From positions 1-35,927 of the forward strand of contig JAGHBX010000562.1 of NCBI GenBank assembly GCA_021160785.1: a stretch of DNA of 35,927 nucleotides, written 5' to 3'. Within the stretch, counting starts at the first letter, position 1. Every line of letters begins with the position of its first letter. Shown here piece by piece: positions 4,782 through 22,071 of this stretch. The position numbers were made by a program, and so were the translations under genes. Source of the DNA: Planctomycetota bacterium. GTDB taxonomy: Bacteria; Planctomycetota; Phycisphaerae; Sedimentisphaerales; Anaerohalosphaeraceae. The notes under the pieces are model-generated. The model was not told the origin of the DNA, searched no databases, and was given only the letters and a program-made list of their open reading frames with translations.

Positions 4782-4816
4782 AAGGAGGACATATCATAAA
4801 TACACTGAGATATGGG

Positions 4817-6757: not shown

Positions 6758-6829
6758 AGAAGACTTGGTCAGGATATCGCTTACTCACCCAGACTTCCAA
6801 AATATTTGTAATTTATAGAAAGGTTAATT

Positions 6830-9592
6830 ATGAGTTTCAAAAGAGTTATGCCGGTAGTGGCATTATACATGCTGTTAGGGATCACTTCTGCGGTTTTTGC
6901 AGGTCAGGGCAATATAGATGTATATCACGGTAATCCTGAAGGTGATGTCGGTCTTTTGGCTGTAAAGGAACTTGACAGTTACCTTAACAAGATGTTCGTT
7001 GACAAAGTAAATCTGAAAGCCAGGGCAGGGTCAGCGGAGATTGTTATTGGAACGGTTAAAGACAATAAACTTATCGCAGAGGCAGTTAAAAGTGGTAAGC
7101 TGACCTTGGCAGAAGGTAAAAATGACGATCAGGGCTATGCGATCAAGACGATCGGTAAGGAAATATACGTAGCCGGTAAGACAGAGGTCGGTGTTTTGTA
7201 TGGTGTGTATGAATTGCTGGAACAGTACGGGGCATTTTTTCAGATAAGCGGCGAGATACTGCCTGAGAAAACTAAGTTTGCCGTCAAGCAGCTTGATATA
7301 AGCAATACGCCGGTATTTAAGTACCGGGGACTGATGCCGTGGGATAATTTCCTTTGTGGTATGAGCGGATACAACCTTGAGGATTCGCAGGAGCTTATCA
7401 CGCGTGCGACAAGGATGAAGTACAACTTCATGAACCTGCACTTCTACCCGGGATATGTGATGTATACCGAAAAATGGGACGGCAAAGAGCTTGCTCCGCA
7501 GTGGGCTGCACAGCCAAATGAATTCGCACCGGCAGGTAAGCCCGGTGAAAAGGCCTTCGGTGACATGAAGCTGTTTTGCGTCGACCCGTGGCAGGACAAC
7601 AAGGACAATCCTCTCAAGCAGGCTCAGGCATGCCAGCAGATGTTCCGCGATGTGATCGATTATGGTCACGGACATGGCTGGGCTTTCGTTGCCGGTTTTG
7701 CACTTACCCAGCCAAGGGGCGGCGATTTCACTTATACCGACAAGCCCGGTATTTCATGGCAAGGTGGTATGAATATGCCTGATCCATTGGTAGAGCATAA
7801 TATCGACCTTCAGGTGGAACGATATCGCAGGCTTACAGAGATATATCCCAACGCCGATTATTACTGGATGTGGCAGAGTGAAGGCGAAGGGGGTATGGGC
7901 CGCAACGTAAGTAAGACAGCCGGCCATAAGGAAATGCGTGATAAGTATTCGTACTGGGGCGATGTTAATAGGGCTGGCGACAGAGACTATGCATACATGT
8001 TTTTGAAGGTTGCCGAGAAACTCACTAAAGAAGAACGAAGCAAACTATCGACGGGCGGCTGGGATATTCAGCATGTTTTTCCGGGTATACATAAGGATTT
8101 TCCAAAGGAGATTATCTTTGCATCGCTGAATAACGCTTACCCGAATGCTGCCGTCAAGGAAGCTGATAATTATCGTGTCGCAGCCGATGGCAGGCGGGCA
8201 TGGATGATATCGTGGTGGGAATTTGACGGTAACCAGTGGTTCCCGCAATGGCGCACATCATGGCATGAAAAAATGTACAACAAAGCAGTTCAATACGGTG
8301 TTGAAGGTGTTTCACAGTTGGGTTGGAAGTTGTCTGGAATTGAGCATCATCCGCGATACCTGGCCGATTTTGCATGGCAGCCTGGACTTAGCGCAAAGGA
8401 ATTCTACAAAGATTATGTCAGCCGAGTTTACGGATATCCTGTTGCCGATGAGATGGCGGCGATGTTTGAAAGATATGATGATTGGGAGGCAAGAACTCCA
8501 CCTGCTGTACCGGGTGATTTCAGACCGATGCTGCTCGGTGCCGGCTGGGCACCACTGGCGATAGTTGATGTTCCTTTTACAAAACGGGCCCTTGAAACAA
8601 ATGAGTGGGAAGATGTTTTAAGGCGTGTCAAAGAATGTATAAGGCAGCAGAACCAATTCATGAGGGAAGACTTAAATAGCATCAAAGTGCTCAACGAACT
8701 TTTGCCAAAGATGACCAAAGATGGCAAAAAGTGGGCAAAACTGCTCCTTAACCGCTTTGAGTTTCGAGTGCTTTATATGCAGGCGACACTCCAGGTTAAC
8801 CAAGCATACATAACTTATGACGAAGTTGCCAGAACTCAAGACATAAAAGCCGGGGCACAGGCAGCTAAAAAGCATTCTCAAGAGGCGGTAAGGCTGGCTG
8901 CCCAAGCTATTGAAAAATACGCCGAAGATGTTCGCAACCGTGGCGACCTTGGCGTTATCGGCCAACTTAATACTCAGTATTATGATTTGATCGTTCGGTT
9001 TAATGACAAATTTAACCTTACTTCGCCATACGTCAGTATTGATTTTGAAAGGTTCCAGGCTAACGTGGCGATACGGCCTGACTTTACTGATGGTAATTGC
9101 TGGCCGGTGCGTGATGGGGTCAGTAAGCTAGAGCTGTTTACTGATGATAGCGAGCCTGCTATAAAATTATCTCTTAACACAGGTGAATTTCAGAATAACT
9201 CCCGTTGGATACATCGGGAAGAGATAAATCTGCAAGAGGCGCCTTACCTGGATTTTTATATCCGCACAGCCGGCAAGGGTCCGCTAAGTTTCATGTTTCA
9301 GGTTGATGGCAGAGACGAGTGGTTTGAACTCGCTTTGCAGGGAACGCAGAATTATACACTTGTTGACAAACTGGGACTCGTTGACGAAATAAATGATGGC
9401 AAATGGCACAGGATTACGTGGAATCTGCAAAAGGTCGTAAAGGAAAAGATCGGTCAGGATATCTCGAAGATAAAGCATCTGATAATCGGCAACTGGCAGA
9501 AGGTCGATGAGCCGGTAGTTGTAGAATTTAAAAGCTTTAACATGGGCAGACTTAACCTTCTTGATGGCCTGGAAGTGGATCCCACACGGTAA
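6830..9592 (+). CDS. secreted putative glycoside hydrolase: GH20b/GH67N-like N-terminal domain, TIM-barrel-like core, C-terminal beta-sandwich
   Basis: 920 aa with a signal peptide MSFKRVMPVVALYMLLGITSAVFA. GYAIKTIGKEIYVAGKTEVGVLYGVYELLEQYGAFF resembles the zincin-like N-domain seen in GH20/GH67/GH115-type enzymes. FKYRGLMPWDNF..MKYNFMNLHFYPG follows. Paralog of 27932..30160. Confidence 0.7.
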   Translation: MSFKRVMPVVALYMLLGITSAVFAGQGNIDVYHGNPEGDVGLLAVKELDSYLNKMFVDKVNLKARAGSAEIVIGTVKDNKLIAEAVKSGKLTLAEGKNDDQGYAIKTIGKEIYVAGKTEVGVLYGVYELLEQYGAFFQISGEILPEKTKFAVKQLDISNTPVFKYRGLMPWDNFLCGMSGYNLEDSQELITRATRMKYNFMNLHFYPGYVMYTEKWDGKELAPQWAAQPNEFAPAGKPGEKAFGDMKLFCVDPWQDNKDNPLKQAQACQQMFRDVIDYGHGHGWAFVAGFALTQPRGGDFTYTDKPGISWQGGMNMPDPLVEHNIDLQVERYRRLTEIYPNADYYWMWQSEGEGGMGRNVSKTAGHKEMRDKYSYWGDVNRAGDRDYAYMFLKVAEKLTKEERSKLSTGGWDIQHVFPGIHKDFPKEIIFASLNNAYPNAAVKEADNYRVAADGRRAWMISWWEFDGNQWFPQWRTSWHEKMYNKAVQYGVEGVSQLGWKLSGIEHHPRYLADFAWQPGLSAKEFYKDYVSRVYGYPVADEMAAMFERYDDWEARTPPAVPGDFRPMLLGAGWAPLAIVDVPFTKRALETNEWEDVLRRVKECIRQQNQFMREDLNSIKVLNELLPKMTKDGKKWAKLLLNRFEFRVLYMQATLQVNQAYITYDEVARTQDIKAGAQAAKKHSQEAVRLAAQAIEKYAEDVRNRGDLGVIGQLNTQYYDLIVRFNDKFNLTSPYVSIDFERFQANVAIRPDFTDGNCWPVRDGVSKLELFTDDSEPAIKLSLNTGEFQNNSRWIHREEINLQEAPYLDFYIRTAGKGPLSFMFQVDGRDEWFELALQGTQNYTLVDKLGLVDEINDGKWHRITWNLQKVVKEKIGQDISKIKHLIIGNWQKVDEPVVVEFKSFNMGRLNLLDGLEVDPTR

Positions 9593-9754: not shown

Positions 9755-9893
9755 ATGGATTCTCGGCCGCCAGCCACTGCGCAGGGTCGTCAGTTTTTTT
9801 TAAAAGAATTGACTATGTTTCAAGAATATGCTATTGTTAACGTACACGGTGTGGGTTTTGAGTTTACTATCCAGACTCAGATAGGCTTGGATT
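9755..9893 (+). promoter_or_regulatory. cassette copy A: terminator-like hairpin + T-run, A/T tract, sigma70-like promoter, leader hairpin
   Basis: Hairpin ACTGCG/CG(T)CAGT at 9776-9794 followed by a T-run to 9801. -35 TTGACT at 9809-9814, 17-nt spacer, -10 TATTGT at 9832-9837. Leader hairpin at 9857-9881. Near-identical copies at 21924-22071 and 35753-35899. Confidence 0.5.
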
Positions 9894-9902
9894 ATGAGAA
9901 TG

Positions 9903-9943: not shown

Positions 9944-11221
9944 ATGAGTGATCGAGGCGATATTAGTCGACGCGGGTTTTTTAAGAAGGCTTCGGCTGTT
10001 AGTGTTGGGGCTTTTGGTCTTCCTTATGTGATTCCATCGTCGGTTTTTAGCAAAGGACGAATTTTACCCAGTGAGCGTATTACCGTGGGGTTTATCGGCA
10101 CGGGTAAACAGTCTCGAAGCGTACTTCTGAGGGGTTTTCTGGGGCAAAGCAGTTGCCAGACCGTCGCTGTTTGTGATGTTGATTCCCGCAAGCGCGAACA
10201 CGCCCGGCAAATGGTCGATAAGAAGTATAAGGGTTGCTCTGAGATTCATGATTTTCGTGACTTGATAGCCCGTGATGATATTGACGCGGTCGTTGTTGCA
10301 ACACCTGACCACTGGCATGCGATTCCTTCGATTCGCGCAATGAAAGCCGGTAAGGATGTGTATTGCGAAAAGCCTTTGTCACTTACTATCGAAGAGGCTC
10401 GCGCTATGGCTGACACTACCCGGCGTTACGGGCGTGTTCTTCAGACGGGCAGCATGCAGCGGTCGGATATGAAGTTTCGGTTTGCCTGTGAGCTGGTTAG
10501 AAACGGTTACATCGGTGATATAAAGAATGTTGTTGTAAATGTCGGCGGGCCCCCGAGCGAATGTAATCTTCCGGCTGAGCCTGTTCTTAATGAACTGGAC
10601 TGGGATATGTGGCTCGGACCTGCCCCTTGGCGTCCTTATAATTCGGATATCGCTCCTCCTATTGAGAGGGATGTTTTTCCGAATTTCCGCAGCTACCGTG
10701 ATTATGCAGGCGGCGGAATGACTGATTGGGGTGCTCACCATTTCGATATCGCTCAATGGGCGCTTGGGATGGATCATACCGGTCCTGTTGAGATCATTCC
10801 GCCTAACGACAAGGATGTCAGCGTGCTTACTTATAAATATGCGAACGGGGTTGTTATGACCCGCGAAGGTACCGCAAACGGTGTTCTTTTCAACGGTACA
10901 AAGGGTAAGGTTGAAGTTAACCGCGGGTACCTTAAGACGTGGCCGGATAAGCTTGCGAGAGTTCAGCTTTCTCCGTCTGATGAGCATCTATATGCAAGTC
11001 CCGATCATTACCGGGATTTCCTGGACTGTATTCGGACTCGCAAAAAACCTATTTGTGACGTGGAGATCGGCTGTCGGTCGGCTACGGTTTGTCATATTGG
11101 TAATATTGCGTACCTGCTTGAAAGACCTCTTAAGTGGGATCCTGTTAAGGAGCGTTTTGTCGGCGACGAAGATGCTAACCGTCATCTGTCTCGCTCGATG
11201 CGCGGGCCGTGGCGACTTTAG
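9944..11221 (+). CDS. TAT-signal Gfo/Idh/MocA family NAD(P)-dependent oxidoreductase (paralog 1)
   Basis: 425 aa. Twin-arginine motif ISRRGFFKKASAVSVGAFG. Rossmann start VGFIGTGKQS. DAVVVATPDHWH and CEKPL (EKP motif). SD GAAAGG. Confidence 0.9.
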   Translation: MSDRGDISRRGFFKKASAVSVGAFGLPYVIPSSVFSKGRILPSERITVGFIGTGKQSRSVLLRGFLGQSSCQTVAVCDVDSRKREHARQMVDKKYKGCSEIHDFRDLIARDDIDAVVVATPDHWHAIPSIRAMKAGKDVYCEKPLSLTIEEARAMADTTRRYGRVLQTGSMQRSDMKFRFACELVRNGYIGDIKNVVVNVGGPPSECNLPAEPVLNELDWDMWLGPAPWRPYNSDIAPPIERDVFPNFRSYRDYAGGGMTDWGAHHFDIAQWALGMDHTGPVEIIPPNDKDVSVLTYKYANGVVMTREGTANGVLFNGTKGKVEVNRGYLKTWPDKLARVQLSPSDEHLYASPDHYRDFLDCIRTRKKPICDVEIGCRSATVCHIGNIAYLLERPLKWDPVKERFVGDEDANRHLSRSMRGPWRL

Positions 11222-11450
11222 AAATGTATAATGTCTATTGTATAATGTATAAGGAAGGAAACGGCCCTCCACAGGCGGATTTGCAACCTTGCGGCCTATA
11301 CATTTTTATTAGAAAACCGATCGCTACGCAAATTCTTTAATTGCAATGGGTTGCGTAAACAGTAAGACTGCTTTCGGTCAGTTTGAGTTTTTAAATATGG
11401 CGTGGGCACGGCCCACCCTGCAATCTTTATTTTTTTTTATGAGGTTTATT

Positions 11451-14400
11451 ATGTTTTATCGTTTCCGGGTGATTGCTTTATTTTTAGCGTTTTGTTTGTT
11501 TTCAGTTTTGGGTTTTGGTGCTGACATCAAGGTTTTGCTTGTTACGGGTCAGAATAACCATGACTGGAAAGCCAGCAGTCCAATTTTCAAGGAGACTCTC
11601 GAAAAAAGCGGTTTGTTCGATGTAGAGATGCTTGTTACCGCACCTGAGGGCGATCTTGTCGATTTTAAGCCCGATTTTTCCGCTTATGATGTCGTTGTTT
11701 CGGATTACAACGGCGGTAAGTGGGGAGCCGAGGCTGAGAAGTCTTTTGAAGAATATATGATAAACGGCGGAGGGCTTGTTGTTATCCATGCCGCGGACAA
11801 CTCTTTCAGCCAATGGGTCGAGTACAACAAAATGATCGGCCTTCGCTGGGGTGGTAACGAAAAGAACGGTCCTTATATCCGATGGCGCGGAGGTAAGTTT
11901 ATTCGCGATATGACGCCAGGCGGTGCAGGCGGCCATGGTGCACAACATGCTTTCCAGGTAATTCACCGGAACATGGAACATCCTATCACTAAAGGGCTTC
12001 CTGAAAAATGGATGCATGCCAAGGATGAGCTTTACGGTTCACTTCGAGGCCCGGCTGAGAATATGACGGTTCTTGCGACGTCTTTTGCAGATAAGTCATT
12101 AGGTGGCTCAGGTGAACATGAGCCTGTTCTCTTTACGATAAATTACGGTAAAGGGAGAGTTTTTCATACGGTGCTTGGGCATGTTGGCGGTGAATATCCT
12201 CCGCCTCCTGTTCAGTGCGCAGGTTTTATCGTAACGCTTCTTAGAGGTACGGAATGGGCAGCGACGGGTAAAGTTACCCAGCAGATTCCAGAAGATTTCC
12301 CCACGGCGGACAAATACCGTTTATGGGCCAACTACAAGGCTCCGAAATTAAGCGAGTTGCTTGCCGAGATCGCCGGGTTTGAATATGGCGATAATTCGGC
12401 TGTTTTTGATGACATAGCTGCTATTGTTACTAATGCTTACGGCAACGCTAAATTGACAAGTAAGTTTGAAGACGAGTTTGTCAAATTCCTCTCTGCGAAT
12501 TCAACACTTGCCGCCAAGCAGGCGGTTTGCAAGCAGCTTAGTATGATTGCTACGGAAAAATCTGTGCCTGTTCTGGCAAAAATGTCGGTCGATGAAGATA
12601 CGTGTGATATGGCTCGGTTCGTACTTGAACGTATATCGTCAAGTAAGGTAGATGGGGCCTTGCAAAGTGTTCTTGCTGATACAAAAGGAAGTCTCAAGGC
12701 GGGCATCATTAATATCCTCGCTGTTCGCGGCGACAGAAGCAGTGCCGTGGTAATAGGCAAGCTTATTTATGACCATGATGAGACAGTTGCTTCCTGTGCG
12801 GTAAGCGCACTCGGTAAACTTGGCGGAAAAGACGCTATTGAGGTTTTAGGCAGAGCCAAACGCAAACTTAAAGGTGATATGCACAAGCAGGTTCTTGACG
12901 CGTATCTTAGTTGTGCTTCGATTTTTGTCGAAGAAGGAGATGGAAAACAGGCGTTTGCAATTTATAAGGAATTGTACAAGCCTTCCTCGCCGCACATAAT
13001 CAGGATCGCTGCTTTGCGGGGCATGGTGATTTCTTCGGAAGAGAGTTCCGGCAAAATCATTCTTGACTGTCTTAAAGATGAAAACCCAACAGTTAAAGCG
13101 GCGGCTTTTGGGCTGGTCAGTGAGGTGTCCGATGTGTCTCAGATCAAGACGATTGCCGGTCAGCTTTCAAGACTTGATGATTCGGGTAAATTGCAACTAC
13201 TTACGGCACTTTCCGAATACGGCAGTAAAGTGGCCCTGTCGGATGTCCTTAAAGAGACAAAGAGCGGCAGCAGTCAAGTCAAGGTTGCAGCTTATAAAGC
13301 AATCGGTGTCATCGGCGATGAATCGACAATACTGCTTCTTACCAATGCAGCGGCGAGCGGTAGTAATGCAGCAGAGATCAAGGCGGCAAGGGAGAGCCTT
13401 TACCGTCTTCGCGGTAGGCAGATCGACCGGGCGATATTGACTTATATCCCTAAAACAGAAGGCAAGGTCAAAGCAGAACTTATTAACAGCGTGGCCCGTC
13501 GTCTCATTGCAGATTCTATGGACACGCTTTTGCAATGTGCACAAGATAGCGATTCAGTAGTAGTAAATGCTTCGATTAAGTCGATGGCGATTGTCGCCAG
13601 ACCGGATAATATCGCCCCAATGGTCAGGCTCCTTTCAAAGTTAAAAAGTGCCAGACAGCGACAGGACATCGAAAAGGCCATGGTCGCTGGCTTACGCAAG
13701 AATGCCGATAATGAAAATATGGACAGCGAGCTTCTTGTCCTGTTTGATTCGACGAGTAATACCGTTGCGAGATGCTCGATCATTAACGTACTTGGGCGGC
13801 TTGGCTGCGACGGTTCGCTCGGTGCGCTTCGCAAATCGCTTAAAAGCGACAATGAAGACGAAAAGGAAGCGGCATTCAGAGCTCTTGTTAAGTGGCCAAA
13901 TGCCGAGCCTATGATGGATATGCTGAAGATCGCAAAGACCGACAGTAAGCCGGTTCGTCAAATATTGGCAATAAGGAGTTATGTTCAGCTTGTCGGCAGG
14001 CCTTCGGAACGCAGTGCAAGCGAAAATGTCGAGCTTCTTAAAGAAGCGGTGGCGTTTACAAGTCGCAACGAGGAAAAGGGTATGATACTTGACGCACTTG
14101 CCGAATATTCTTGTCCGGAGGCTATAGAGCTTGCCGAGGGTTTCCTCGGAGGCGATCTTTCCTCGCAGGCAGAGACTTTGATCGCTAAGCTCAAGATGGT
14201 AACGGTTTCGGCGCGTCCCGGAGATATAGCCGGTATAACGCCTAAGGGTAATGCAGACGGCAACTTCGAGGTGAAAAAAGACGACGAAGGCGACGGAACA
14301 TTGTGTTGGGTGTTCAAGGATTATTTCTATCACGACATCGACAATGAATTCAGCAAGGATACGGGCGGATCGGTGGTAGTCGAAGTCCTTTTCAGAGATT

Positions 14401-14642
14401 ACGGTACGGGTAACTTGCAACTGCAGTACGATTCAACAGATCCTTCGGCGCCGGTTGATGGAGCGTACAAGACGGCAGCGAAAATGGTAAAACTCTACGA
14501 TAGCAGTAAGTGGCGGACAGCGACGTGGAAGATAGATGATGCCAGATTCAGTAACCGTCAAAATGCCGGATGCGATATGAGGTTCGGCGCAGGCGGCAGG
14601 GAAATCTGGTTAGCCAGGATAAAAGTCTCCAAAAAGCCCTAA
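11451..14642 (+). CDS. secreted ThuA-like domain / HEAT-repeat solenoid / C-terminal beta-sandwich fusion protein
   Basis: The ORF is open from 11346. ATG 11451 has GAGG 6 nt upstream and gives the signal peptide MFYRFRVIALFLAFCLFSVLGFGA. ThuA-like motifs: KVLLVTGQNNHDW, GGGLVVIHAADNSF, HPITKGLP, FTINYGKGRVFHTVLGH. About 700 aa of HEAT-like repeats follow (SCAVSALGKLGGKDAIEVL etc). The core is homologous to 33042..35627. Confidence 0.8.
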   Translation: MFYRFRVIALFLAFCLFSVLGFGADIKVLLVTGQNNHDWKASSPIFKETLEKSGLFDVEMLVTAPEGDLVDFKPDFSAYDVVVSDYNGGKWGAEAEKSFEEYMINGGGLVVIHAADNSFSQWVEYNKMIGLRWGGNEKNGPYIRWRGGKFIRDMTPGGAGGHGAQHAFQVIHRNMEHPITKGLPEKWMHAKDELYGSLRGPAENMTVLATSFADKSLGGSGEHEPVLFTINYGKGRVFHTVLGHVGGEYPPPPVQCAGFIVTLLRGTEWAATGKVTQQIPEDFPTADKYRLWANYKAPKLSELLAEIAGFEYGDNSAVFDDIAAIVTNAYGNAKLTSKFEDEFVKFLSANSTLAAKQAVCKQLSMIATEKSVPVLAKMSVDEDTCDMARFVLERISSSKVDGALQSVLADTKGSLKAGIINILAVRGDRSSAVVIGKLIYDHDETVASCAVSALGKLGGKDAIEVLGRAKRKLKGDMHKQVLDAYLSCASIFVEEGDGKQAFAIYKELYKPSSPHIIRIAALRGMVISSEESSGKIILDCLKDENPTVKAAAFGLVSEVSDVSQIKTIAGQLSRLDDSGKLQLLTALSEYGSKVALSDVLKETKSGSSQVKVAAYKAIGVIGDESTILLLTNAAASGSNAAEIKAARESLYRLRGRQIDRAILTYIPKTEGKVKAELINSVARRLIADSMDTLLQCAQDSDSVVVNASIKSMAIVARPDNIAPMVRLLSKLKSARQRQDIEKAMVAGLRKNADNENMDSELLVLFDSTSNTVARCSIINVLGRLGCDGSLGALRKSLKSDNEDEKEAAFRALVKWPNAEPMMDMLKIAKTDSKPVRQILAIRSYVQLVGRPSERSASENVELLKEAVAFTSRNEEKGMILDALAEYSCPEAIELAEGFLGGDLSSQAETLIAKLKMVTVSARPGDIAGITPKGNADGNFEVKKDDEGDGTLCWVFKDYFYHDIDNEFSKDTGGSVVVEVLFRDYGTGNLQLQYDSTDPSAPVDGAYKTAAKMVKLYDSSKWRTATWKIDDARFSNRQNAGCDMRFGAGGREIWLARIKVSKKP

Positions 14643-14707
14643 TGAAATATAAAGTTTGAGGTTTAAGTTGCTACCTTCGGTGTACATAACTTTATAAGGA
14701 AACTATT

Positions 14708-15259
14708 ATGAAAATAGGATGTTTTGCACTTGTTGAACCTTTCAGTCCGATGGAAAGGCAGTTTCAGGCGATAAGCGAAATGGGCATTCAGTATGCCGAT
14801 CTCACTGATAATCATAACGGGGCTATGCTTGGTGTAGAGTATGGGTTTACTGCATCAATTAGTCTTGATAGTCACCCGAAGAAGATCCGTGAGATGGTCG
14901 AAGCTGCAGGGATAACTTTGACGAGCGTTTGCGCTCATGCAAACCTGCTTGATCCGGCAAGCCCAGATACTTATGGCACCAACAGCATTACCAAAGCGGT
15001 TCGGCTTGCAAGCCTGCTGGGGATTAAGCATGTCCACTGGAAAGATATGTCCTCCGAATGGCAGGAACAACGTGGCAAACAGTATGGCTGCGGGATGGCT
15101 GTTATTCCGCTTGGAGATGGAGTTATAGATATTGAGGCCATTGTTAAAGCTTTAAAAAAATCTGGTTTTGACGGAGCTACGACCCTGGAAATTGCCGGAC
15201 CTGATAACGTAATTAAATCAATAGAAAGATTAAATGAGTGGTGGAATAATGGCAAATAA
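14708..15259 (+). CDS. xylose-isomerase-fold (AP_endonuc_2) sugar phosphate isomerase/epimerase-like protein, apparently internally truncated
   Basis: 183 aa, whereas my recollection is about 250-300 aa for the family. The N-terminal part runs to LLGIKHV and joins directly to HVHWKD..PLGDGVIDIEAIVKALKKSGFDGATTLEIAG, which resembles the C-terminal end of the barrel. The middle strands appear absent. Confidence 0.55.
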   Translation: MKIGCFALVEPFSPMERQFQAISEMGIQYADLTDNHNGAMLGVEYGFTASISLDSHPKKIREMVEAAGITLTSVCAHANLLDPASPDTYGTNSITKAVRLASLLGIKHVHWKDMSSEWQEQRGKQYGCGMAVIPLGDGVIDIEAIVKALKKSGFDGATTLEIAGPDNVIKSIERLNEWWNNGK

Positions 15260-16529
15260 GAACTCGTTAAAAGTTACGAGAAGAAATTTTCTTGCCGCAT
15301 CGGCGTCAGCTTTTGCGATACCGTATATTATCACATCAGACACTCTTGGCAAAGGCGGGAAACCTGCTGCATCACAACGTATAACTGTTGCTCATATTGG
15401 CATAGGCGGTCAGGGTACGCTGGTCATGAATGGTTTTCTGGGACTGAAAGATTCACAATCAATCGCTGTTTGTGATTGCTTCGAAGATCGGCGGCAAGGC
15501 GGGGCTAAGATAGTCGACGATAAATATACGACTACCGGCTGTAGGCAGTACAGCGATTTTCGAGATGTTCTCGCCTCTGATGATATCGATGCGGTAGTAA
15601 TTGCTACTCCCGATCACTGGCATGTTCCTATCGCTATTGCCGCAGCCAAGGCTGGTAAGGATATGTATGTCGAAAAGCCACTTGGAATGAGCATTGAGGA
15701 AAATAAGGCTCTTCGTATAGTTTTAGCGATGTACGGTAATGTTTTCCAGTACGGAACGATGCAGCGGAGTTTCTCATCTCATTGTGCGTTTGCCTGTGAT
15801 ATTGTCCGTAACGGTTATATCGGCGAACTGAAGGAGGTTCATATTACCGCTCCTACGGGAGGTTCCGGTGGTTCAACAGTGCCTGTAGATGTCCCTGAAG
15901 GGCTTGATTATGAAATGTGGCTTGGTCCTGCACCGTTTAGTCCTTTTACGAAAGACCGCTGTACACCGGGCGGGTCATATTTTTGTTATGATAACTCGCT
16001 GGGCTTTATTTCCGGGTGGGGGGCCCATCCCCTCGATATAATGCATTGGGGTTATCCATATATTCCCGTTGAATACGAAGGCACGGGTGTGATTCCGAAG
16101 AAAGGTCTTTATGATACTATAACAAACTGGAACATACGCGGGAAATTTGAAAGCGGCGTAAAGTTCTTCTTTATGGACGGACCGGATATGACAACGTTTA
16201 TTGGTAACGAAGGGACTATTTCCGTTTCGCGCCAGCAGATAACCGCCAATCCCAAATCGTTGCTTAGAACAGTCATTAAGCCAGATGAAATACACCACTT
16301 AAAGAGCAGAAACCACTACGCAGATTTTATTGGTTGTGTCAAGACTCGTTCTGCACCGTCAAGCCCAATCGACAGTGCGGTGCAATCTGACTTTATAAGC
16401 CATCTTAGTGACATAACTATTCGTACAGGTCGCAGGATTAAATGGGATCCGCAAAATGAAACGATAATTGGCGATGAAACCGCCACGAGAATGATGAAAA
16501 GGCCTATGTCAAATCCGTGGCACCTTTGA
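15249..16529 (+). CDS. TAT-signal Gfo/Idh/MocA family oxidoreductase (paralog 2)
   Basis: The track ORF starts at 15234. ATG 15249 gives MANKNSLKVTRRNFLAASASAFAIPYI with a twin-arginine motif. VAHIGIGGQG, DAVVIATPDHWH and VEKPL are present. The start overlaps the last codons of the upstream gene by 11 nt. Confidence 0.9.
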   Translation: MANKNSLKVTRRNFLAASASAFAIPYIITSDTLGKGGKPAASQRITVAHIGIGGQGTLVMNGFLGLKDSQSIAVCDCFEDRRQGGAKIVDDKYTTTGCRQYSDFRDVLASDDIDAVVIATPDHWHVPIAIAAAKAGKDMYVEKPLGMSIEENKALRIVLAMYGNVFQYGTMQRSFSSHCAFACDIVRNGYIGELKEVHITAPTGGSGGSTVPVDVPEGLDYEMWLGPAPFSPFTKDRCTPGGSYFCYDNSLGFISGWGAHPLDIMHWGYPYIPVEYEGTGVIPKKGLYDTITNWNIRGKFESGVKFFFMDGPDMTTFIGNEGTISVSRQQITANPKSLLRTVIKPDEIHHLKSRNHYADFIGCVKTRSAPSSPIDSAVQSDFISHLSDITIRTGRRIKWDPQNETIIGDETATRMMKRPMSNPWHL

Positions 16530-16575: not shown

Positions 16576-17283
16576 ATGACAAACCCTGGAGACATTGTTT
16601 TGAATGCTGGCGATTCATTGAATTTACGAAAAAATACAACAAATAAGAAAGATTTGTCAGATAGACAAGTTGGTCATATTGTTTCGTATACTCATTGGGA
16701 TCGTGAATGGCGATACCCGATCTGGGAAACCCGGCTGATGCTTATTAGTTTTATGGATGAACTGATCGAGTGCCTTGAAAAAGGTCTCTATGCAGGTTTC
16801 CTTTTGGATGGCCAGGTTTCGCCTGTGTTGGATTATCTTGAGATCAAGCCGGAAATGAAAGATCGGCTCATTGCATTGATCAAAGCAGGCAAACTCGAGG
16901 TCGGTCCATGGTTAACGTTGCCGGACGAATATCCGGTTAACGGAGAATGTTTGGTTCGCAATCTTTTGCTTGGCATACGTGAATCTGAAAAACTCGGCGG
17001 TTCCTTTATGTGTGGTTATACCTCATTCGGCTGGGGACAGACTGCTCAATTACCGCAGATATATTCCGGTTTTGGCATTGATGTGGCCATGATCGGCAAG
17101 AAGGTAAATACAGATAGGGCCCCAAAAAATGAATTTCTATGGTTAGCTCCCGACGGCAGCGAACTTATTACCTCCCGGTTTGGCGAATGGGGCAGGCATA
17201 ACTTTATGGTTCATGTCCATCTTTCTGCCCTTATGGGAAAGCACTATACTGATGATGAGTTGGCAATATCAATGGTCCAATGA
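16576..17283 (+). pseudogene. GH38 alpha-mannosidase, N-terminal fragment (frame 1)
   Basis: HIVSYTHWDREWRYP (the GH38 HxHxDxxW-type motif), GKLEVGPWLTLPDEYPVNGECLVRNLLLG, FLWLAPDGSELI. The frame ends at TGA 17281-17283 while the homology continues in the next frame. Confidence 0.8.
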
Positions 17284-19270
17284 CGATGTGTTTTATCATC
17301 GTGCAGATAAGGACCAGAGAGAGCAGGATTTCTTCATACTCAATAAGCCGACTAAATGGCACCCGGAATGGTTAACACCTGAGATGGTCAATGAGTTATG
17401 GGATACGACTAAAGATAGCGTTGTCCCCAACGACAGATTGATGATGGATGGCGTTGACTATGCTCCTCCACAAAAAATGTTGCCTGAAATGATAGACCGT
17501 GTAAATGCCATTGACCCGCAAAAAGGACGCCTTTGGCAGCATACAGTAATGCGAAAATATGCGGAGATCATGCGTCAGAATATTGACAGATCAAAGCTCA
17601 TAAAAGTGTTTGGTGAATTGCGTGACGGCCCTGCAGGACCAACTTCGGGCAATGCACTGACAACCAGACTTTATGTAAAGCAAAAGAACAAGCTGGCTGA
17701 AAACATGTTAATTCGTTTTGCGGAGCCTTTTTCAGTTTTAACTACTATGCTCGGAGTAGAGTACCCATCCGCTCTTCTGGCAAAAGCATGGCAATTCCTT
17801 TTGAACTCTCATCCTCACGACTCGATTAACGGTGTTACTCAGGACAAGACCGTTCGAGATGTTGAAAACCGGTTGGATCAGGTAATTGACATCTCTCAGG
17901 CTCTCGGCAATAAGGCGATGCAGCAATTAATAATGAATATCGACAGATCAGGTTTTGACGAAAAAGATGTGCTGCTGGTGGTATTCAATCCTTTGCCTTA
18001 TCCAAGGCGCGAAGTTATCGATGCACAAGTGGATATCCCGAATGGCGAAGCGAACTTCTGGCCAAAGGCGGAAAATGGTTTATTTGCTTATGATCCCGAC
18101 GGCAAGGCGGTTGCGACGCAATGGATGGGATCGTTCGAGAAGACTTATCCGGTAATACAGTGGCATAGCAGGGGGTTTCCATATCATTGCAACTCACATC
18201 GTCTGTTGATCGATACCGAAGAAATACCTGCCGGCGGCTACAAGGTTTTCAAAGTCGTTTCCGTTGAAGATATAGAGGATAGGGAGATTTGCCATAAGAG
18301 CAGCCTTGTCAGCACGCCTTCACTAAGACTTGAGCCGCACACATTGGAAAATGAATATCTTAACGTTAAATTCAATGCCAATGGTACCTTTGATATTTAT
18401 TGCAAAGAACTGGACCATACGTTTGCCGACTTGAATTATTTTGAGGACCGCGGCGAATTGGGCGACTACTGGATCAATAACGTTCCCGTAAATGACCAGA
18501 TACACACATCGCTTGGCTGCAATGCAAGGATACGGACCAAAGAGCACGGCCCTTTGCAAGCTACTGTTGTTACGGAACTGACAATGGAGATTCCTAAACG
18601 CGGCATACCTTCTGAGCAGTCAAGAAGCGGTGAACTCGAAGAACTCAAGATACAGACATCTGTTACGTTAAAGAAGGACTGTAGGGCTGTTGAAGTTGAG
18701 GTGACTTTTGAAAACAAGTGCAGGGATCATTATTTACGTGTCATGATGCCGACTGATCTTGAAAATGCAACCCACGCCGATTCCGGCGGTCACTTCAATG
18801 TTGACTCCAGGCCGATCAAAACTCAGGGCCCTGAGCCTGGGTGTATTTGGCCTGACATGGTAACATTGCCTCATCAGCGTTTTGTCGATGTCAGTGATTG
18901 CAAGGGCGATTGGTATGAATCAAACATTCCATTGCAGGCAGACATCTTCAATGTTCCTGTTAGAATTGTTCAGACAAAAAAGATGGCTGGTTGCTTACCA
19001 GCCGGCAAGGCAAGTTTGTTTTCGATCGATAACCCCAATATCAGGTTATCCGCATTGAAAAAGGCTCAGGACAGCGATAACTTTATTCTGCGGGTATATA
19101 ACTCTACGGACCAAAAGCAAAATTCTACAGTTACGCTTTGCAAAGAGATCAAACAGGCATGGCAGACAGATTTAAATGAAAAACGGACCGATGCCTGCCA
19201 AATGGAAAAGAACTCTATCAAGTTAGCTCTTGACCCTCGTAAAATTGCAACATTTGAAATTATGATCTAA
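17180..19270 (+). pseudogene. GH38 alpha-mannosidase, middle and C-terminal fragment (frame 2)
   Basis: Continues GH38 features: MMDGVDYAPPQ, GELRDG, WQFLLNSHPHDSINGVTQDKTV, HQRFVDVSD, ILRVYNSTDQ. It overlaps the upstream fragment by 104 nt in a different frame. Confidence 0.8.
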
Positions 19271-19304: not shown

Positions 19305-20690
19305 ATGAAACGTCTTGTATTTTTTGTTTGCTTAACGATTTATACTTCTATTCTGCCGGCTGCTTCTCAAAAACAGCCTCTTGATCGCGCCGAGCAATTC
19401 GATCTGACTTTAGATCAGGTTATCGCTAAAACGTGCAAGCCGTACGAAGGAAGATCAAATCCATCGGTTGATCCTGAAACCCTTGTCGGCAAAGTACTCT
19501 GCGGATACCAGGGCTGGTTCACCTGCCCGGGCGATGGAAGTGGAAAAGGCTGGTATCATTGGGAGGAACATGTGGATGATGCAGAAAGAGAAAAAGGCAA
19601 GATCGGCGAATTTAAACCGGGTCATTGTTCCATAGACCTTTGGCCCGATGTAAGTGAGCTGGATGAAGATGAAAAATATCCGACTGAATTCAAGCATGCT
19701 GACAGCAGTGTAGCTTATGTATATAGCTCTCTTAACCGCAAGACCGTTGAGCGTCACTATAAGTGGTTGCAGGACTATGGTATTGATGGCACGATGGTGC
19801 AGAGATTTGTTGTTGCAACACACAAACCTAAAGATCTGTGTCACTTTAATACTGTTCTTGCTAACTGCCGGTCGGGTGCTAATGTCCACGGAAGATGCTA
19901 TGCCATAATGTATGATCTTTCAGGAATGACTTCCGCGGATGTTTCACATATTAAATCAGACTGGAAGATGTTAGTTGATAAGATGCGTCTGACGCGTGAT
20001 CCTAACGATAAAGCATATTTGCACCACAAAGGCAAACCCTTGATCGGTCTTTGGGGAATAGGTTTTAATGATTCGCGAAAATACAATTTGGATGATTGTA
20101 GCGAATTGGTTGATTTTTTCAAGAACGATCCGGAGTATGGCGGGATGACCGTACTTTGCGGAGTGCCAGCTTTTTGGCGTACTTTTGGCAGGGACGCTTT
20201 AAATGACAAGAAGCTTCATGAGATCATTTTAAAAGCAGATATTGTTTCGCCATGGATGGTTGGAAGGTTTTCCGGTATCGATGATGTCAATGATTTTTAT
20301 GAAACAGTTTTCAAAGATGATGTATTGTGGTGCAAAGAGAAAGGTTTGGACTACTTGCCTGTTGCCTGGCCGGGCTTTAGCTGGTCGAATTTAACAAAGA
20401 ATAAATCCCAGCTTGGTGTTATTGGCCGCCATAAAGGTGAATTTTTGTGGCAGCAATACGCTGCATTTAAAAAGGCGGGAGTGAATATGTTTTATCAGGC
20501 CATGTTTGATGAAGTTGACGAAGGGACGGTGATTTTTAAATGTACTAACGATCCTCCGGTTGGAAAATCGAAGTTCTTAAGCTACGAAGGCTTGCCGAAC
20601 GATCATTATCTGTGGCTGGTGGGCCAGGGCGGCAGGCTTATTCGTTCTTCTGATGCAGCTGATCTTAATATGCCCGTCAGAATTAAATAG
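19305..20690 (+). CDS. secreted putative glycoside hydrolase, GH99/GH71-like TIM-barrel family (tentative)
   Basis: 461 aa with a signal peptide MKRLVFFVCLTIYTSILPAAS. LCGYQGWF is present, and MFDEVDEGTVIFK resembles the FNEWHEGTQIE motif of GH99 endo-alpha-mannosidases as I recall it. SD AGGAG. Confidence 0.55.
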   Translation: MKRLVFFVCLTIYTSILPAASQKQPLDRAEQFDLTLDQVIAKTCKPYEGRSNPSVDPETLVGKVLCGYQGWFTCPGDGSGKGWYHWEEHVDDAEREKGKIGEFKPGHCSIDLWPDVSELDEDEKYPTEFKHADSSVAYVYSSLNRKTVERHYKWLQDYGIDGTMVQRFVVATHKPKDLCHFNTVLANCRSGANVHGRCYAIMYDLSGMTSADVSHIKSDWKMLVDKMRLTRDPNDKAYLHHKGKPLIGLWGIGFNDSRKYNLDDCSELVDFFKNDPEYGGMTVLCGVPAFWRTFGRDALNDKKLHEIILKADIVSPWMVGRFSGIDDVNDFYETVFKDDVLWCKEKGLDYLPVAWPGFSWSNLTKNKSQLGVIGRHKGEFLWQQYAAFKKAGVNMFYQAMFDEVDEGTVIFKCTNDPPVGKSKFLSYEGLPNDHYLWLVGQGGRLIRSSDAADLNMPVRIK

Positions 20691-21923: not shown

Positions 21924-22071
21924 TTAGATACCGATTCTCGGCTGGCAGCCACTGTGCAGGGTCGTCAGGTGTTTAAAAAAAAGAATTGACTATGTTTCAA
22001 GAATATGCTATTGTTAACGTACACGGCGCAGGTTCTTGGGCTTGCTATCGGGACCCAGAAAGACTTGTATT
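21924..22071 (+). promoter_or_regulatory. cassette copy B (promoter/leader for the prepilin-like gene)
   Basis: -35 TTGACT at 21986-21991, 17-nt spacer, -10 TATTGT at 22009-22014. Leader hairpin at about 22037-22057. A 10-bp bulged hairpin CCCTGT(T)TGTT/AACAACAGGG lies just before it at 21885-21923. Confidence 0.5.

Follow-up and report, generated by a model that had tools for sequence, protein, structure and literature searches.

Exported-type Gfo/Idh/MocA dehydrogenases paired with HEAT-repeat proteins in a planctomycete glycan locus: a candidate oxidising half of periplasmic glycoside cleavage

The window considered here, a 35,927-nucleotide contig of a Planctomycetota bacterium analysed over its whole length, encodes three Gfo/Idh/MocA dehydrogenases, two large HEAT-repeat proteins and the remains of a TIM-barrel gene. 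These features are as follows:

1482-2879: MFS sugar porter
9758-9900, + strand: shared promoter/leader cassette upstream of GfoA (three copies in the window)
9944-11221, + strand: GfoA, Tat-signal Gfo/Idh/MocA dehydrogenase of the PF19051 C2 type, directly 5′ of ThuA-HEAT (Pfam)
11451-11522, + strand: Sec-type signal peptide of the ThuA-HEAT protein, MFYRFRVIALFLAFCLFSVLGFGA (read from sequence)
11526-12320, + strand: ThuA domain, class I glutamine-amidotransferase-like fold, 4E5V-like subfamily (PF06283, PDB 4e5v)
12348-14213, + strand: HEAT-like α-solenoid of ~620 residues and ~44 helices (HEAT_2, HEAT and HEAT_PBS matches; AF2 pLDDT >90)
14307-14639, + strand: C-terminal 8-strand β-sandwich of unassigned family, after a disordered linker (AF2 model)
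14708-15259, + strand: cytoplasmic xylose-isomerase-like TIM-barrel gene, now a relic that lacks ~100 aa through an in-frame deletion (AP_endonuc_2, alignment)
15249-16529, + strand: GfoB, Tat-signal C2-type Gfo (Pfam, tree position)
16576-19270, + strand: GH38 α-mannosidase gene, frameshifted within the N-terminal domain (Pfam domains split over two ORFs)
31605-32987, + strand: GfoC, Tat-signal C2-type Gfo, directly 5′ of the HEAT-only paralogue HEAT2 (Pfam)
33012-35627, + strand: HEAT2, signal peptide, HEAT solenoid and C-terminal β-sandwich without ThuA (HEAT_2, 132 bits)

GfoA, GfoB and GfoC each match PF01408 and PF19051 (GFO_IDH_MocA_C2), and GfoA is 43% identical to GfoC and 38% identical to GfoB. 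Their N-termini carry SRRGFFK, TRRNFLA and SRRGFLK, respectively, with a weak TAT_signal Pfam match on GfoC, and R9, R10 and F12 are almost invariant among 21 Gfo homologues. Of 83 C2-type Gfo proteins from related loci, 82 have an RRxF[LF]-type motif, versus 3 of 18 other Gfo proteins. The original prediction of three paralogous genes with twin-arginine signals is thus upheld, and the signals read from sequence indicate that all three are exported-type enzymes.

A cytoplasmic inositol dehydrogenase identity was rejected for these proteins, in agreement with the exported-type assignment proposed earlier. The nearest solved relative by both sequence and fold is the Tat-exported glucoside 3-dehydrogenase AL3 of Alistipes (8tdf). 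For GfoA, AL3 is the best solved sequence match (E 6.5e-31) and the first-ranked fold match (E 9.5e-22, TMq 0.66); the next fold neighbours are DgpA1 (rank 3) and GFOR, with aldose-aldose oxidoreductase also near the top. GfoA and AL3 have in common the motifs EKP, L(D/N)WD..GPAP.RPYN and D-x3-H, and GfoA keeps the EKP lysine and the equivalents of AL3 Asp248 and His252. The glucose-binding Arg192 and Trp195 of AL3 are not kept in the aligned window Gfo proteins, and therefore the substrate sugar is probably not plain glucose. The sub-clade of GfoB, which groups in the tree with L030_9563 and the TIM-adjacent L089_1265, has a glycine at the position equivalent to Asp248 and a common GWGAHPLD motif; the Gfo partners of ThuA-HEAT proteins group in a single clade, to which GfoA is sister. 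None of the window Gfo proteins attains the NCBIfam BT_2158_fam equivalog cut-off (118-149 bits vs 750; GfoA, 148.8 bits), and the match covers their N-terminal half only.

The same family contains NAD-dependent glycosidases. GH109 enzymes combine the Gfo fold with an export signal, and the C2-type Gfo proteins might likewise be self-contained glycosidases of the GH109/GH4 type that carry out oxidation, elimination, water addition and reduction in one active site, with HEAT and ThuA proteins that bind substrate or are unrelated. Tat export with a bound cofactor would fit such a redox-neutral single-enzyme cycle, and the Gfo genes are interleaved with classical glycosidases. We nevertheless consider this reading quite improbable, since Pfam returns for the window Gfo proteins the generic GFO_IDH_MocA N, C, C2 and C3 families plus TAT_signal and no other family, with no GH109-specific match, and GH109 structures fall outside the best 60 sequence matches and the best 50 fold matches.

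The gene 3′ of GfoA (11451-14642) encodes a protein of 1063 aa whose start is called at the same place in a second assembly (L001), and whose signal region forms a helix at residues 2-18 with low pLDDT in the AF2 model. The ThuA domain (residues 26-290) scores 96.8 bits for PF06283 (cut-off 33.4) and matches PDB 4e5v with E 1.6e-92; its Foldseek TMt is 0.88. Across 21 homologues, this domain is dense in invariant His, Asp, Glu and Arg residues; in the solenoid (residues 300-921), invariant positions are mainly Leu, Ala and Gly. The solenoid is all-helical, is matched end-to-end by 2462 cluster representatives (E<=1e-30) and has the PP2A PR65/A subunit, SF3b155 and karyopherins as fold neighbours. 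Among the homologues compared, only P0002 and P0003 have the β-sandwich (residues 953-1062) in common with it. This domain has no Pfam match, and a relationship to DUF1080 was rejected (hhalign probability 0.7%). The predicted ThuA-like domain with signal peptide and HEAT solenoid therefore holds, including a signal-like helix and HEAT_2 matches, but the solenoid spans ~620 aa in the AF2 model rather than the ~700 proposed. The view that this architecture is not characterised also stands, as our literature search found no paper on PF19051-type Gfo proteins, the ThuA-HEAT protein or its HEAT family.

HEAT2, which was overlooked in the original prediction and lies outside the region it covered (9944-16529), aligns collinearly with the ThuA-HEAT protein over residues 287-899 of the latter (28% identity, E 3e-58). 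At the C-terminus of HEAT2, the motif GADDRIKAWING...FMIKV..GGWRFRCRV matches the β-sandwich found in P0004, P0076, P0092, P0105 and P0022. Because HEAT2 directly follows GfoC, the window contains two Gfo+HEAT gene pairs, GfoA/ThuA-HEAT and GfoC/HEAT2.

The cassette upstream of GfoA recurs at 21933-22078 and 35762-35906, and the three copies are 85-92% identical. A scan for promoter-like hexamers identified TTGACT-17-TATTGT at 9809-9837 in the GfoA copy, preceded by a conserved GC-rich box. As had been proposed, the genes are interleaved with glycosidases and the sugar porter: the window encodes two GH120-insertion/β-helix proteins, two proteins with weak GH67N-like matches and one GH38. The GH38N domain lies on ORF 16576-17283 and the GH38 middle and C-terminal domains on ORF 17180-19270, a split that is identical in L001. 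This gene starts 46 nt 3′ of GfoB on the same strand, lacks a signal peptide and is regarded here as context only for the Gfo/HEAT module.

Between ThuA-HEAT and GfoB, the original prediction placed a xylose-isomerase-fold TIM-barrel gene. AP_endonuc_2 does match there, but the match falls into two separate stretches of a 183-aa product that is a relic. Compared with a 282-aa homologue (L089), with which it shares 58% identity, it lacks ~100 central residues, and the gap is also evident against five other full-length TIM proteins. The junction joins ...LLGIK to HVHWKD..., so that the IEPHG and LDTGN strands are gone and the barrel core is removed; the same junction occurs in L001. A stop codon lies 6 codons 5′ of the ATG, and therefore a signal peptide cannot be added. 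Without a signal peptide and with its barrel core deleted, the protein cannot be an exported eliminase, and this candidate was ruled out. The candidate bond-breaking enzyme of this locus has been lost.

That two same-strand genes 3′ of ThuA-HEAT, TIM and GH38, are damaged in two assemblies could mean that the whole module is a decaying, non-functional remnant in its host. This appears very improbable, given that the damage is confined to two genes for cytoplasmic proteins and leaves the exported set untouched: the three Gfo genes, ThuA-HEAT and HEAT2 all remain long, intact ORFs in which the Tat motifs and the catalytic Lys/His are conserved, the ThuA-HEAT protein keeps the invariant residues of its family, and a conserved promoter cassette precedes GfoA. 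The window has relatives that are 82-83% identical to it (P0122 and P0123).

The association of Gfo with ThuA/HEAT is strongly conserved, as the neighbourhood comparison called for by the original prediction revealed. Members of Planctomycetota, Aminicenantes, Hydrogenedentota, Bacteroidota and further phyla carry a C2-type Gfo gene directly beside a ThuA-HEAT or HEAT-only gene. Among the 13 full-length ThuA-HEAT loci of GTDB species genomes for which upstream DNA is present, 12 have a C2-type Gfo directly upstream, and the 13th has one directly downstream. An automated count found the pairing for 11/14 full-length ThuA-HEAT genes, 21/28 of the ~400-aa Bacteroidota form and 4/28 short stand-alone ThuA genes, against a background of 5 C2-type Gfo genes in 548 kb of flanks (0.009 per kb). 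The pairing also occurs on the metagenome contigs L007, L009, L094, L096 and L097, and HEAT-only proteins adjoin C2-type Gfo in L064, L099 and L101 as they do in the window. The fusion itself is variable, with ThuA and HEAT as separate adjacent genes in L100 and, in L096 and L097, the fused protein split between a ThuA-HEAT gene and a HEAT gene. At least 8000 matches to C2-type Gfo compare with 760 ThuA-HEAT homologues, and therefore most C2-type Gfo proteins work without such a partner, an excess that counts in favour of the single-enzyme GH109/GH4 alternative.

In relatives, the module is tied to DUF1080 and TIM-barrel lyase/hydratase families by both neighbourhood and gene fusion, consistent with the predicted co-localisation of Gfo, ThuA and TIM genes. 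A C-terminal PF06439 (3keto-disac_hyd/DUF1080) domain is present in 18 of the best 120 of the 760 ThuA-HEAT homologues, HEAT-DUF1080 fusions without ThuA occur in P0246, P0292 and P0305, and in L101 a Gfo(C2) gene with a HEAT-DUF1080 gene after it stands alone amid housekeeping genes as a two-gene unit. Full-length AP_endonuc_2 TIM genes, DUF1080 genes or both also occur in the clusters of L004, L007, L096, L097 and L100; in those of L009 and L018, the additions are limited to TIM genes. For the DUF1080 domains fused to ThuA-HEAT, the match is to PDB 4qhz, a DUF1080 protein that is itself uncharacterised, and not to AL2/BT2 directly, and therefore the lyase assignment rests on Pfam-family membership. 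Signal peptides were not found on the full-length TIM proteins of L007, L009, L018 and L089, the four that were read, and therefore part of those clusters is cytoplasmic. This consistent clustering with separate lyase-family genes suggests a stepwise pathway and argues against a single-enzyme glycosidase.

A further possibility is a periplasmic sugar/polyol oxidoreductase system without glycosidic bond cleavage, in which the substrates oxidised by the Tat-exported Gfo proteins are free monosaccharides or sugar alcohols that the glycosidases liberate. They would act as GFOR-like transhydrogenases or as dehydrogenases feeding c-type cytochromes, with ThuA/HEAT as a coupling or docking subunit. 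Multihaem cytochrome genes end the clusters of L007, L009 and L100, and Bacteroidota loci encode 4-haem proteins upstream of Gfo-Gfo(C2)-ThuA genes; the fold likeness of GfoA to GFOR and aldose-aldose oxidoreductase, the loss of the glucoside-binding residues of AL3 and the lack of an intact lyase in the window point the same way. However, the window encodes no cytochrome, the best relative, AL3, is a glycoside rather than a monosaccharide dehydrogenase, and the repeated fusions of HEAT and ThuA-HEAT to DUF1080, together with the L101 unit, point to a keto-glycoside lyase step. We therefore regard this system as unlikely.

On balance, we lean modestly towards reading the region as the oxidising half of a scaffold-associated variant of periplasmic 'oxidise, eliminate, hydrate' glycoside cleavage, and the Gfo/ThuA/HEAT pairing is probably an uncharacterised version of 'oxidise, then break' sugar-chain digestion. 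The exported oxidation/elimination route originally predicted is thus supported in its exported-type dehydrogenases and its conserved, lyase-linked association. However, domain searches and hhalign on the β-sandwich found no DUF1080 in the window and the TIM gene is a relic, and therefore a complete route is not encoded at the locus.

In the proposed mechanism, GfoA, GfoB and GfoC, made with conserved twin-arginine signals, would be exported folded and presumably NAD(P)-bound, as in Zymomonas GFOR and as proposed for BT2158/AL3. By analogy to AL3 and DgpA, they would oxidise a ring hydroxyl, most likely the C3-OH, on the sugar at the non-reducing end of oligosaccharides that the locus glycosidases generate. 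GfoA and GfoC, whose genes are each paired with a HEAT gene, may each work in complex with a Sec-exported solenoid of ~620 residues. Fold likeness suggests a scaffold role by analogy: the solenoid could be a docking platform for the dehydrogenase, the ThuA domain and, in many relatives, a DUF1080 lyase/hydratase, which would let the labile keto-glycoside pass on. ThuA, with its universally conserved His/Glu/Tyr/Arg set, is probably a catalytic or sugar-binding subunit for the (keto-)sugar, as in rhizobial ThuA-ThuB. Elimination and hydration would need DUF1080 or TIM-barrel lyases, which another part of the genome may supply; alternatively, the module may now make keto-glycosides only. The bound NAD(P)H would be re-oxidised by reducing the released 3-keto-sugar in a redox-neutral cycle, or alternatively via c-type cytochromes such as those clustered in relatives, and the MFS porter would import the released sugar.

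The closest known system is the 3-keto-glycoside pathway of AL1-AL4 in Alistipes and BT2156-BT2160 in Bacteroides thetaiotaomicron, for which the chemistry and enzyme compartments have been described (Liu 2021, PMC8121099; Nasseri 2024, bioRxiv 10.1101/2024.03.25.586180). Its two lyase/hydratase families are DUF1080 and xylose-isomerase-like TIM proteins, both present in gene clusters of the window module's relatives, and its Tat-exported Gfo/Idh/MocA dehydrogenase AL3 is the best match of GfoA. In contrast, the C-terminal half of the window Gfo proteins belongs to another Pfam family (PF19051), they score far under the BT_2158 cut-off and lack AL3 Arg192 and Trp195, and the window has a truncated, cytoplasmic TIM protein and no DUF1080. 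The AL/BT system has neither ThuA nor a HEAT protein, and its components are reported as not obligate complexes. The general idea of oxidation-elimination is already published for BT2156-2160 and AL1-4; the ThuA/HEAT partnership is the uncharacterised part.

Zymomonas mobilis GFOR is likewise a Tat-exported Gfo-family enzyme, with non-dissociable NADP (PMC8121099 for export biology), and a top fold neighbour of GfoA, but it acts on free monosaccharides without partner proteins and is 18-19% identical. DgpA/DgpB-C and CarA/B/C also use a Gfo-family 3-oxidase followed by a xylose-isomerase-fold lyase; those systems are, however, cytoplasmic and C-glycoside-specific, and the window encodes no DgpB/C-like heterodimer. 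The NAD-dependent GH109 α-N-acetylgalactosaminidase resembles the window Gfo proteins in its fold, export signal and oxidative mechanism, but differs in lying outside their best matches. The PP2A A subunit (PR65) and karyopherins, scaffolds that hold catalytic and regulatory partners together, superpose on the 620-residue solenoid with TMt 0.4-0.48, a likeness in fold only, as they are eukaryotic, cytoplasmic and 10-15% identical. Finally, ThuA-ThuB of rhizobia and Agrobacterium, which converts a disaccharide to a 3-keto-disaccharide (cited in PMC8121099), also encodes a PF06283 protein beside a Gfo/Idh/MocA dehydrogenase, as does Rhizobium sp. SL42 (L092), and His, Glu, Tyr and Arg are invariant in both ThuA types. 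No signal peptides are visible in the sequences of the rhizobial pair, which lies beside an ABC sugar importer; its Gfo falls outside the C2 clade, and its ThuA is ~213 aa and ~23% identical to the window domain, whereas the window ThuA is exported-type, 4E5V-like with a ~35-aa insertion, and fused to a HEAT solenoid.

The window is metagenome-derived DNA with near-identical contigs in ENA ERZ23499350 (L001) and JGI 3300016457 (L002, L003); L001 is 99.85% identical to it and has a scaffold gap of its own. Every long ORF lies on the plus strand. Searches with Pfam and NCBIfam bore out the domain calls of the original prediction, and the genes central to our analysis are as follows.

9944-11221, plus strand, GfoA: Rossmann domain PF01408 and PF19051 "C2" C-terminal domain
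11451-14642, plus strand, ThuA-HEAT: ThuA domain PF06283 (96.8 bits, cut-off 33.4) and HEAT_2 repeats
14708-15259, plus strand, TIM gene: AP_endonuc_2 match in two separate stretches
15249-16529, plus strand, GfoB: PF01408 and PF19051 "C2"
31605-32987, plus strand, GfoC: PF01408 and PF19051 "C2"
33012-35627, plus strand, HEAT2: signal peptide, starting 24 nt after GfoC

The same databases place an MFS sugar porter, two GH120-insertion/β-helix proteins and a GH38 protein in the neighbourhood, together with two weak GH67N-like matches, a PA14/dockerin giant protein and two pilin-like N_methyl proteins. The pilin-like proteins (5-1030 and 22072-22953) carry a prepilin N-methylation motif (FTLIELLVVIAIIALLLSIL) and head gene blocks of the locus; together with the named relatives of the Gfo and ThuA-HEAT proteins, they suggest a source in Planctomycetota or another PVC group. 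Between GH38 and the second copy of a repeated promoter cassette lie a 461-aa signal-peptide protein with no Pfam or NCBIfam match (19305-20690) and a URO-D-family protein (20751-21812), which, like the TIM and GH38 proteins, has no signal peptide. PF06439 (DUF1080) is absent by Pfam from all window proteins, the 19 window ORFs searched for CxxCH hold no such motif and by that test no cytochrome, and Rfam gave zero matches across the window, the repeated leader element included.

All three Gfo proteins begin with predicted twin-arginine signals (SRRGFFK in GfoA, TRRNFLA in GfoB, SRRGFLK in GfoC). Such signals are not due to chance, as an RRxF[LF]-type motif is present in 82 of 83 C2-type Gfo proteins of related loci but in no more than 3 of the 18 remaining Gfo proteins of those loci; at R9, R10 and F12, 21 homologues hardly vary. 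After the Tat h-region, the C2-type proteins (the three of the window and those of loci L007-L089) share a conserved (F/L)Px(I/V)(I/V)P(S/A)S(A/V)(L/F)G motif, and an AxA cleavage site is not obvious there. One possibility is that the signal is not cleaved and serves as an anchor; another is a different role for the motif. The IolG equivalog scores 66-91 bits against a cut-off of 355, over the Rossmann half only, which together with the Tat motifs upholds the view that these exported-type proteins are not cytoplasmic inositol or sugar dehydrogenases. They could also be self-contained glycosidases of the GH109 kind, which share the fold. This appears quite improbable, with only generic GFO_IDH_MocA models matching the Gfo proteins and GH109 absent from the best 60 PDB sequence matches and the best 50 fold matches of GfoA.

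The closest structural kin of GfoA is AL3, the Alistipes glucoside-3-dehydrogenase. Its entries 8TDF and 8TDH are the best PDB sequence matches (E ~1e-30, residues 38-266), and both proteins have EKP, "L(D/N)WD..GPAP.RPYN" and the D-x3-H motif holding AL3 Asp248 and His252. AL3 is likewise the top fold neighbour of the GfoA AF2 model (pLDDT 78, pTM 0.79), over its full length (E 9.5e-22, TMq 0.66, 24% identity), followed by DgpA1 and GFOR. In AL3, Asp248 and His252 lie at O3, and Arg192 and Trp195 bind the glucose ring (bioRxiv 10.1101/2024.03.25.586180). The Asp248/His252 equivalents are kept in GfoA and GfoC, and GfoB has Gly for Asp. In the alignment GGPPSE of GfoA stands opposite the AL3 segment RPIW, and Arg192 and Trp195 are therefore absent from GfoA. 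Against the BT_2158 equivalog (NCBIfam NF058561, cut-off 750 bits), GfoA, GfoB and GfoC score 148.8, 118.4 and 131.1 bits, in matches that cover only positions 1 to ~260 of the 487-position model. From these comparisons we infer that the Gfo proteins act like members of the BT2158/AL3 family yet fall outside it, and that they would oxidise glycosides at C3. The alternative of a periplasmic monosaccharide oxidoreductase or respiratory dehydrogenase is unlikely.

Two genes of the operon are damaged. The 183-aa TIM protein is 58% identical to a 282-aa homologue of a Mariniphaga MAG (L089:381-1229) and lacks ~100 central residues, with the gap between "...LLGIK" and "HVHWKD...", which breaks its Pfam match into two stretches. 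The "IEPHG" and "LDTGN" strands, kept in every full-length relative, fall inside the deletion, and L001 carries the identical junction. A stop codon six codons 5′ of the ATG excludes a longer N-terminus with a signal peptide. The TIM gene is a relic and cannot supply the exported 3-keto-β-glycoside 1,2-lyase with an intact metal site (His/Asp/His plus Glu) of the AL/BT pathway, its core being deleted and a signal peptide impossible. The original prediction of an exported oxidation/elimination route for glycosidic bond cleavage is thus only partly supported: genes for a putative exported oxidising part are present, while the lyase step is not encoded in the locus, its sole candidate being a deleted cytoplasmic gene. 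Annotation should therefore not claim a complete oxidative cleavage pathway. The in-frame deletion is flanked by "HV" codon pairs (GIK-HV...KIE-HVHWKD in the intact homologue), which suggests that it arose between short direct repeats. The GH38 α-mannosidase gene (16576-19270) has a frameshift near 17250-17280, inside the N-terminal domain, that splits the gene into two overlapping ORFs; the split is present in both the window and the second assembly L001, and we take it to mark a probable pseudogene and not an error of sequencing. Both damaged genes code for cytoplasmic proteins, and every exported component is intact.

A neighbour-joining tree of 101 Gfo proteins relates the dehydrogenases to gene order. 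Gfo genes immediately upstream of ThuA or ThuA-HEAT form one clade within the large C2 clade, with GfoA as sister; GfoC joins Bacteroidota genes that lie downstream of ThuA, and GfoB joins a gene downstream of ThuA-HEAT (L030) and a TIM-adjacent pair (L089). The cross-phylum GfoB sub-clade (with L030:9563 and L089:1265) has the motif GF(L/I)xGWGAHPLD, in which Gly replaces the AL3 Asp248 equivalent. The L089 gene directly follows an intact TIM gene, making TIM-GfoB a conserved pair of its own. The damaged TIM and GH38 genes might suggest a module in decay as a whole, a reading that we regard as very improbable; the Gly of the GfoB clade is conserved across phyla and so is not a sign of decay.

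The two HEAT proteins both carry Sec-type signal peptides. An AF2 model of the 1063-aa ThuA-HEAT protein, built from a 21-sequence alignment (mean pLDDT 82), divides it into four parts.

Residues 26-290: ThuA α/β domain
Residues 300-921: continuous solenoid of ~44 helices, pLDDT >90
Residues 923-952: disordered linker
Residues 953-1062 (window 14307-14639, plus strand): 8-strand β-sandwich

ThuA takes its name from trehalose-utilisation genetics. The ThuA part matches 4E5V, an uncharacterised Parabacteroides "ThuA-like" structure (Foldseek TMt 0.88; sequence E 1.6e-92), and the Foldseek neighbours of the solenoid are the PP2A A subunit, SF3b155 and karyopherins. Dozens of polar residues of the ThuA domain do not vary among 21 homologues, whereas what is invariant in the solenoid is chiefly Leu, Ala and Gly. 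Even very distant ThuA subfamilies, one from Rhizobium included, still share one His, one Glu, one Tyr and one Arg. ThuA may have a catalytic or binding role. The C-terminal β-sandwich is common to the two closest homologues only. As a hidden DUF1080 it was rejected, with no Pfam match at E<=1 and a profile-profile (hhalign) probability of 0.7%. HEAT2, which lacks ThuA, is collinear with residues 287-899 of ThuA-HEAT (28% identity, E 3e-58); its C-terminus is empty in Pfam and has a motif-level match only, to the β-sandwich of other family members. ThuA-HEAT starts 229 nt after the end of GfoA and HEAT2 directly follows GfoC, so the window holds two pairs of Gfo and HEAT-family genes, plus GfoB.

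The operon also shares a ~145-nt element with other parts of the window, in three same-orientation copies that are 85-92% identical.

9758-9900, plus strand, before GfoA
21933-22078, plus strand, second copy
35762-35906, plus strand, third copy

Each comprises a GC-rich box (ATTCTCGGCCGCCAGCCACTGCGCAGGGTCGTCAG), a T/A tract, a near-consensus promoter (TTGACT-17-TATTGT with TG) and a leader. The leader of the second copy continues into the ATG of a pilin-like gene (MRKKGFTLIELL), and the third probably leads likewise into a gene start (MRKGFI..., cut by the window end). In the copy before GfoA, the ATG opens a 10-codon dead ORF only. The cassette reads as a putative shared promoter/operator that would co-regulate the Gfo/ThuA-HEAT operon with the pilin-led operons.

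The pairing of Gfo with ThuA/HEAT genes recurs well beyond the window. We scanned one genome per GTDB species and retained 80 of the more than 594 loci obtained, whose ORFs were called and searched with the window proteins and the cluster proteins of relatives. A C2-type Gfo gene lies immediately upstream in 12 of 13 HEAT-bearing full-length loci with upstream DNA, and immediately downstream in the thirteenth, against a background of 0.009 C2-type Gfo genes per kb in flanks >4 kb away; this adjacency is conserved. In an automated count, such a neighbour was present for 11/14 full-length genes, 21/28 of the ~400-aa Bacteroidota form and 4/28 short stand-alone ThuA genes. No Gfo gene adjoins the stand-alone ThuA genes on plasmids of Runella, Catenovulum and Parabacteroides, so short ThuA is not a reliable marker of the module. 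Gene orders that bear on the pairing are listed below, those of metagenome contigs being read from precomputed Pfam.

L007: Gfo, TIM (333), Gfo(C2), ThuA-HEAT, DUF1080, two Gfo(C2), TIM (272), Gfo, multihaem cytochrome
L009 (Aminicenantes): Gfo(C2), ThuA-HEAT, Gfo, TIM, Tat-Gfo, multihaem cytochrome
L004: ThuA-HEAT-DUF1080 fusion and TIM-DUF1080 fusion
L096 (complete Phycisphaerales genome CP070675.1) and L097: DUF6807-DUF1080, TIM, Gfo(C2) genes, ThuA-HEAT (~540), HEAT (476-632), DUF1080, Gfo(C2)
L094: closest GfoA relative (82% identity) beside a divergently transcribed ThuA-HEAT; rest of the locus sulfatases
L099: Gfo(C2), then HEAT
L100: two Gfo(C2), separate ThuA gene, HEAT, two more Gfo(C2), Gfo, cytochrome
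L101 (ENA ERZ24794679 NODE_1964), 4629-9573: isolated Gfo(C2), then HEAT-DUF1080 (1190 aa), among purD, leuA and valS

HEAT-only genes thus adjoin C2-type Gfo as ThuA-HEAT genes do (L099, L100, L101). The two-gene unit of L101 is a natural "minimal system" for the idea of a dehydrogenase, a scaffold and a lyase. Bacteroidota MAGs (L024-L056, L070, L079, L089) have a compact operon of a 4-haem c-type cytochrome (~520 aa), a ~445-aa Gfo from a separate clade, a Gfo(C2) and a ~400-aa ThuA protein, which consists of ThuA and the first HEAT-like helices; further Gfo(C2), DUF1080 and TIM genes often come next. Of the forms of the module, this one probably lends itself best to genetics.

At E<=1e-5, 760 homologues of ThuA-HEAT were scored, with named sources in Planctomycetota (including Sedimentisphaerales), Aminicenantes, Marinimicrobia and Hydrogenedentes MAGs. 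The best-named relatives (45-65% identity) come from MAGs of Phycisphaerae, Sedimentisphaerales and Planctomycetota. When 1.84 billion proteins were searched with the solenoid by itself, 2462 cluster representatives matched it end-to-end at E<=1e-30. Among the best 150, it starts within the first 110 residues in 104, which are HEAT-only, and at residue 200-400 in 44 (about a third), leaving room for an N-terminal ThuA. The C-termini of the family are modular, with none, a HEAT2-like β-sandwich, a DUF1080 or both. PF06439 (the "3keto-disac_hyd" family of Pfam) is present on 18 of the best 120 ThuA-HEAT homologues, and HEAT-DUF1080 fusions without ThuA also occur. The DUF1080 of the fusion proteins matches the uncharacterised PDB entry 4qhz and not AL2/BT2, so that their assignment as lyases holds at family level only.

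Directly observed are the genes with their signals and paralogy, the conservation of their adjacency, the gene fusions and fissions, and the structural likeness to AL3. We slightly favour the reading that GfoA/ThuA-HEAT and GfoC/HEAT2, with GfoB, supply the exported, oxidising side of the AL/BT-type pathway in a variant associated with a scaffold. A physical Gfo-HEAT complex would fit the recurring pairing, and keto-glycosides may be handed over to lyases. A further proposal, which we hold to be unlikely, is that the HEAT solenoid docks the Tat-exported Gfo and, with ThuA, passes electrons to c-type cytochromes or channels the keto-glycoside to a tethered DUF1080. ThuA/HEAT would then be the missing partner for periplasmic turnover of a Gfo whose bound NAD(P)H cannot exchange, and the cytochrome branch would link glycan oxidation to respiration.

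Behind the window there seems to be a large family of periplasmic HEAT solenoids that is so far uncharacterised. Its genes are tied to a single clade of Tat-exported Gfo, and many times over they are fused to, or cluster with, genes for DUF1080, TIM barrels and cytochromes; the family is present in Planctomycetota, Bacteroidota, Aminicenantes, Hydrogenedentota and other phyla. If the paired proteins do form a complex, ThuA would gain a defined function, the solenoid would become a rare case of a bacterial extracytoplasmic HEAT scaffold, and marine and sediment glycan-degradation loci could be annotated beyond classical CAZymes. Should the docking proposal hold, it would reveal, in several phyla, bacterial multi-enzyme assemblies of a new kind that are built in the periplasm on a eukaryote-like HEAT scaffold, and the first defined function for ThuA, for which we found none in the literature searched. 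The accessible part of one study places a ThuA-domain protein in deoxynojirimycin breakdown, with no separate ThuA-protein assay in that part (PNAS 2024, PMC11494336).

Oxidative non-Koshland glycoside cleavage was worked out in gut Bacteroidota between 2021 and 2024 (PMC8121099; bioRxiv 10.1101/2024.03.25.586180). In the proposal of Liu et al., BT2158 is exported by Tat and uses a tightly bound cofactor to oxidise disaccharides (PMC8121099). Nasseri et al. showed that AL3/BT3 oxidises at C3, that the TIM-barrel AL1/BT1 is a 3-keto-β-glucoside 1,2-lyase and that the DUF1080 protein AL2/BT2 is a 3-keto-α-glucoside lyase and also a hydratase; rates were unaffected by added NAD(P)(H), which suggests a tightly bound cofactor (bioRxiv 10.1101/2024.03.25.586180). 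The pathway's authors left open the in-vivo re-oxidation of the exported dehydrogenase and the pathway's spread and forms. We found no literature on PF19051, ThuA-HEAT, or ThuA with DUF1080 beyond Liu et al. The oxidation-elimination type of pathway is already known, and the Gfo(C2)-ThuA/HEAT(-DUF1080) module is uncharacterised in the accessible literature and widespread. The AL/BT pathway has neither a ThuA nor a HEAT protein, unlike the window; conversely, it includes an exported TIM lyase and a DUF1080 lyase/hydratase, both of which the window lacks, although related clusters and fusions carry DUF1080. The likeness to rhizobial ThuA-ThuB lies in a PF06283 domain with an adjacent Gfo/Idh/MocA gene, an adjacency that is conserved. 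Orthology to the rhizobial plasmid thuA was rejected, since the only match, from Rhizobium sp. SL42, is 23% identical and its ThuB-like Gfo falls outside the C2 clade; this indicates that the Gfo-ThuA pairing is ancient. Whereas rhizobial ThuA and ThuB are cytoplasmic and encoded beside the thuEFGK ABC importer, the proteins of the window carry export signals and are accompanied by an MFS porter.
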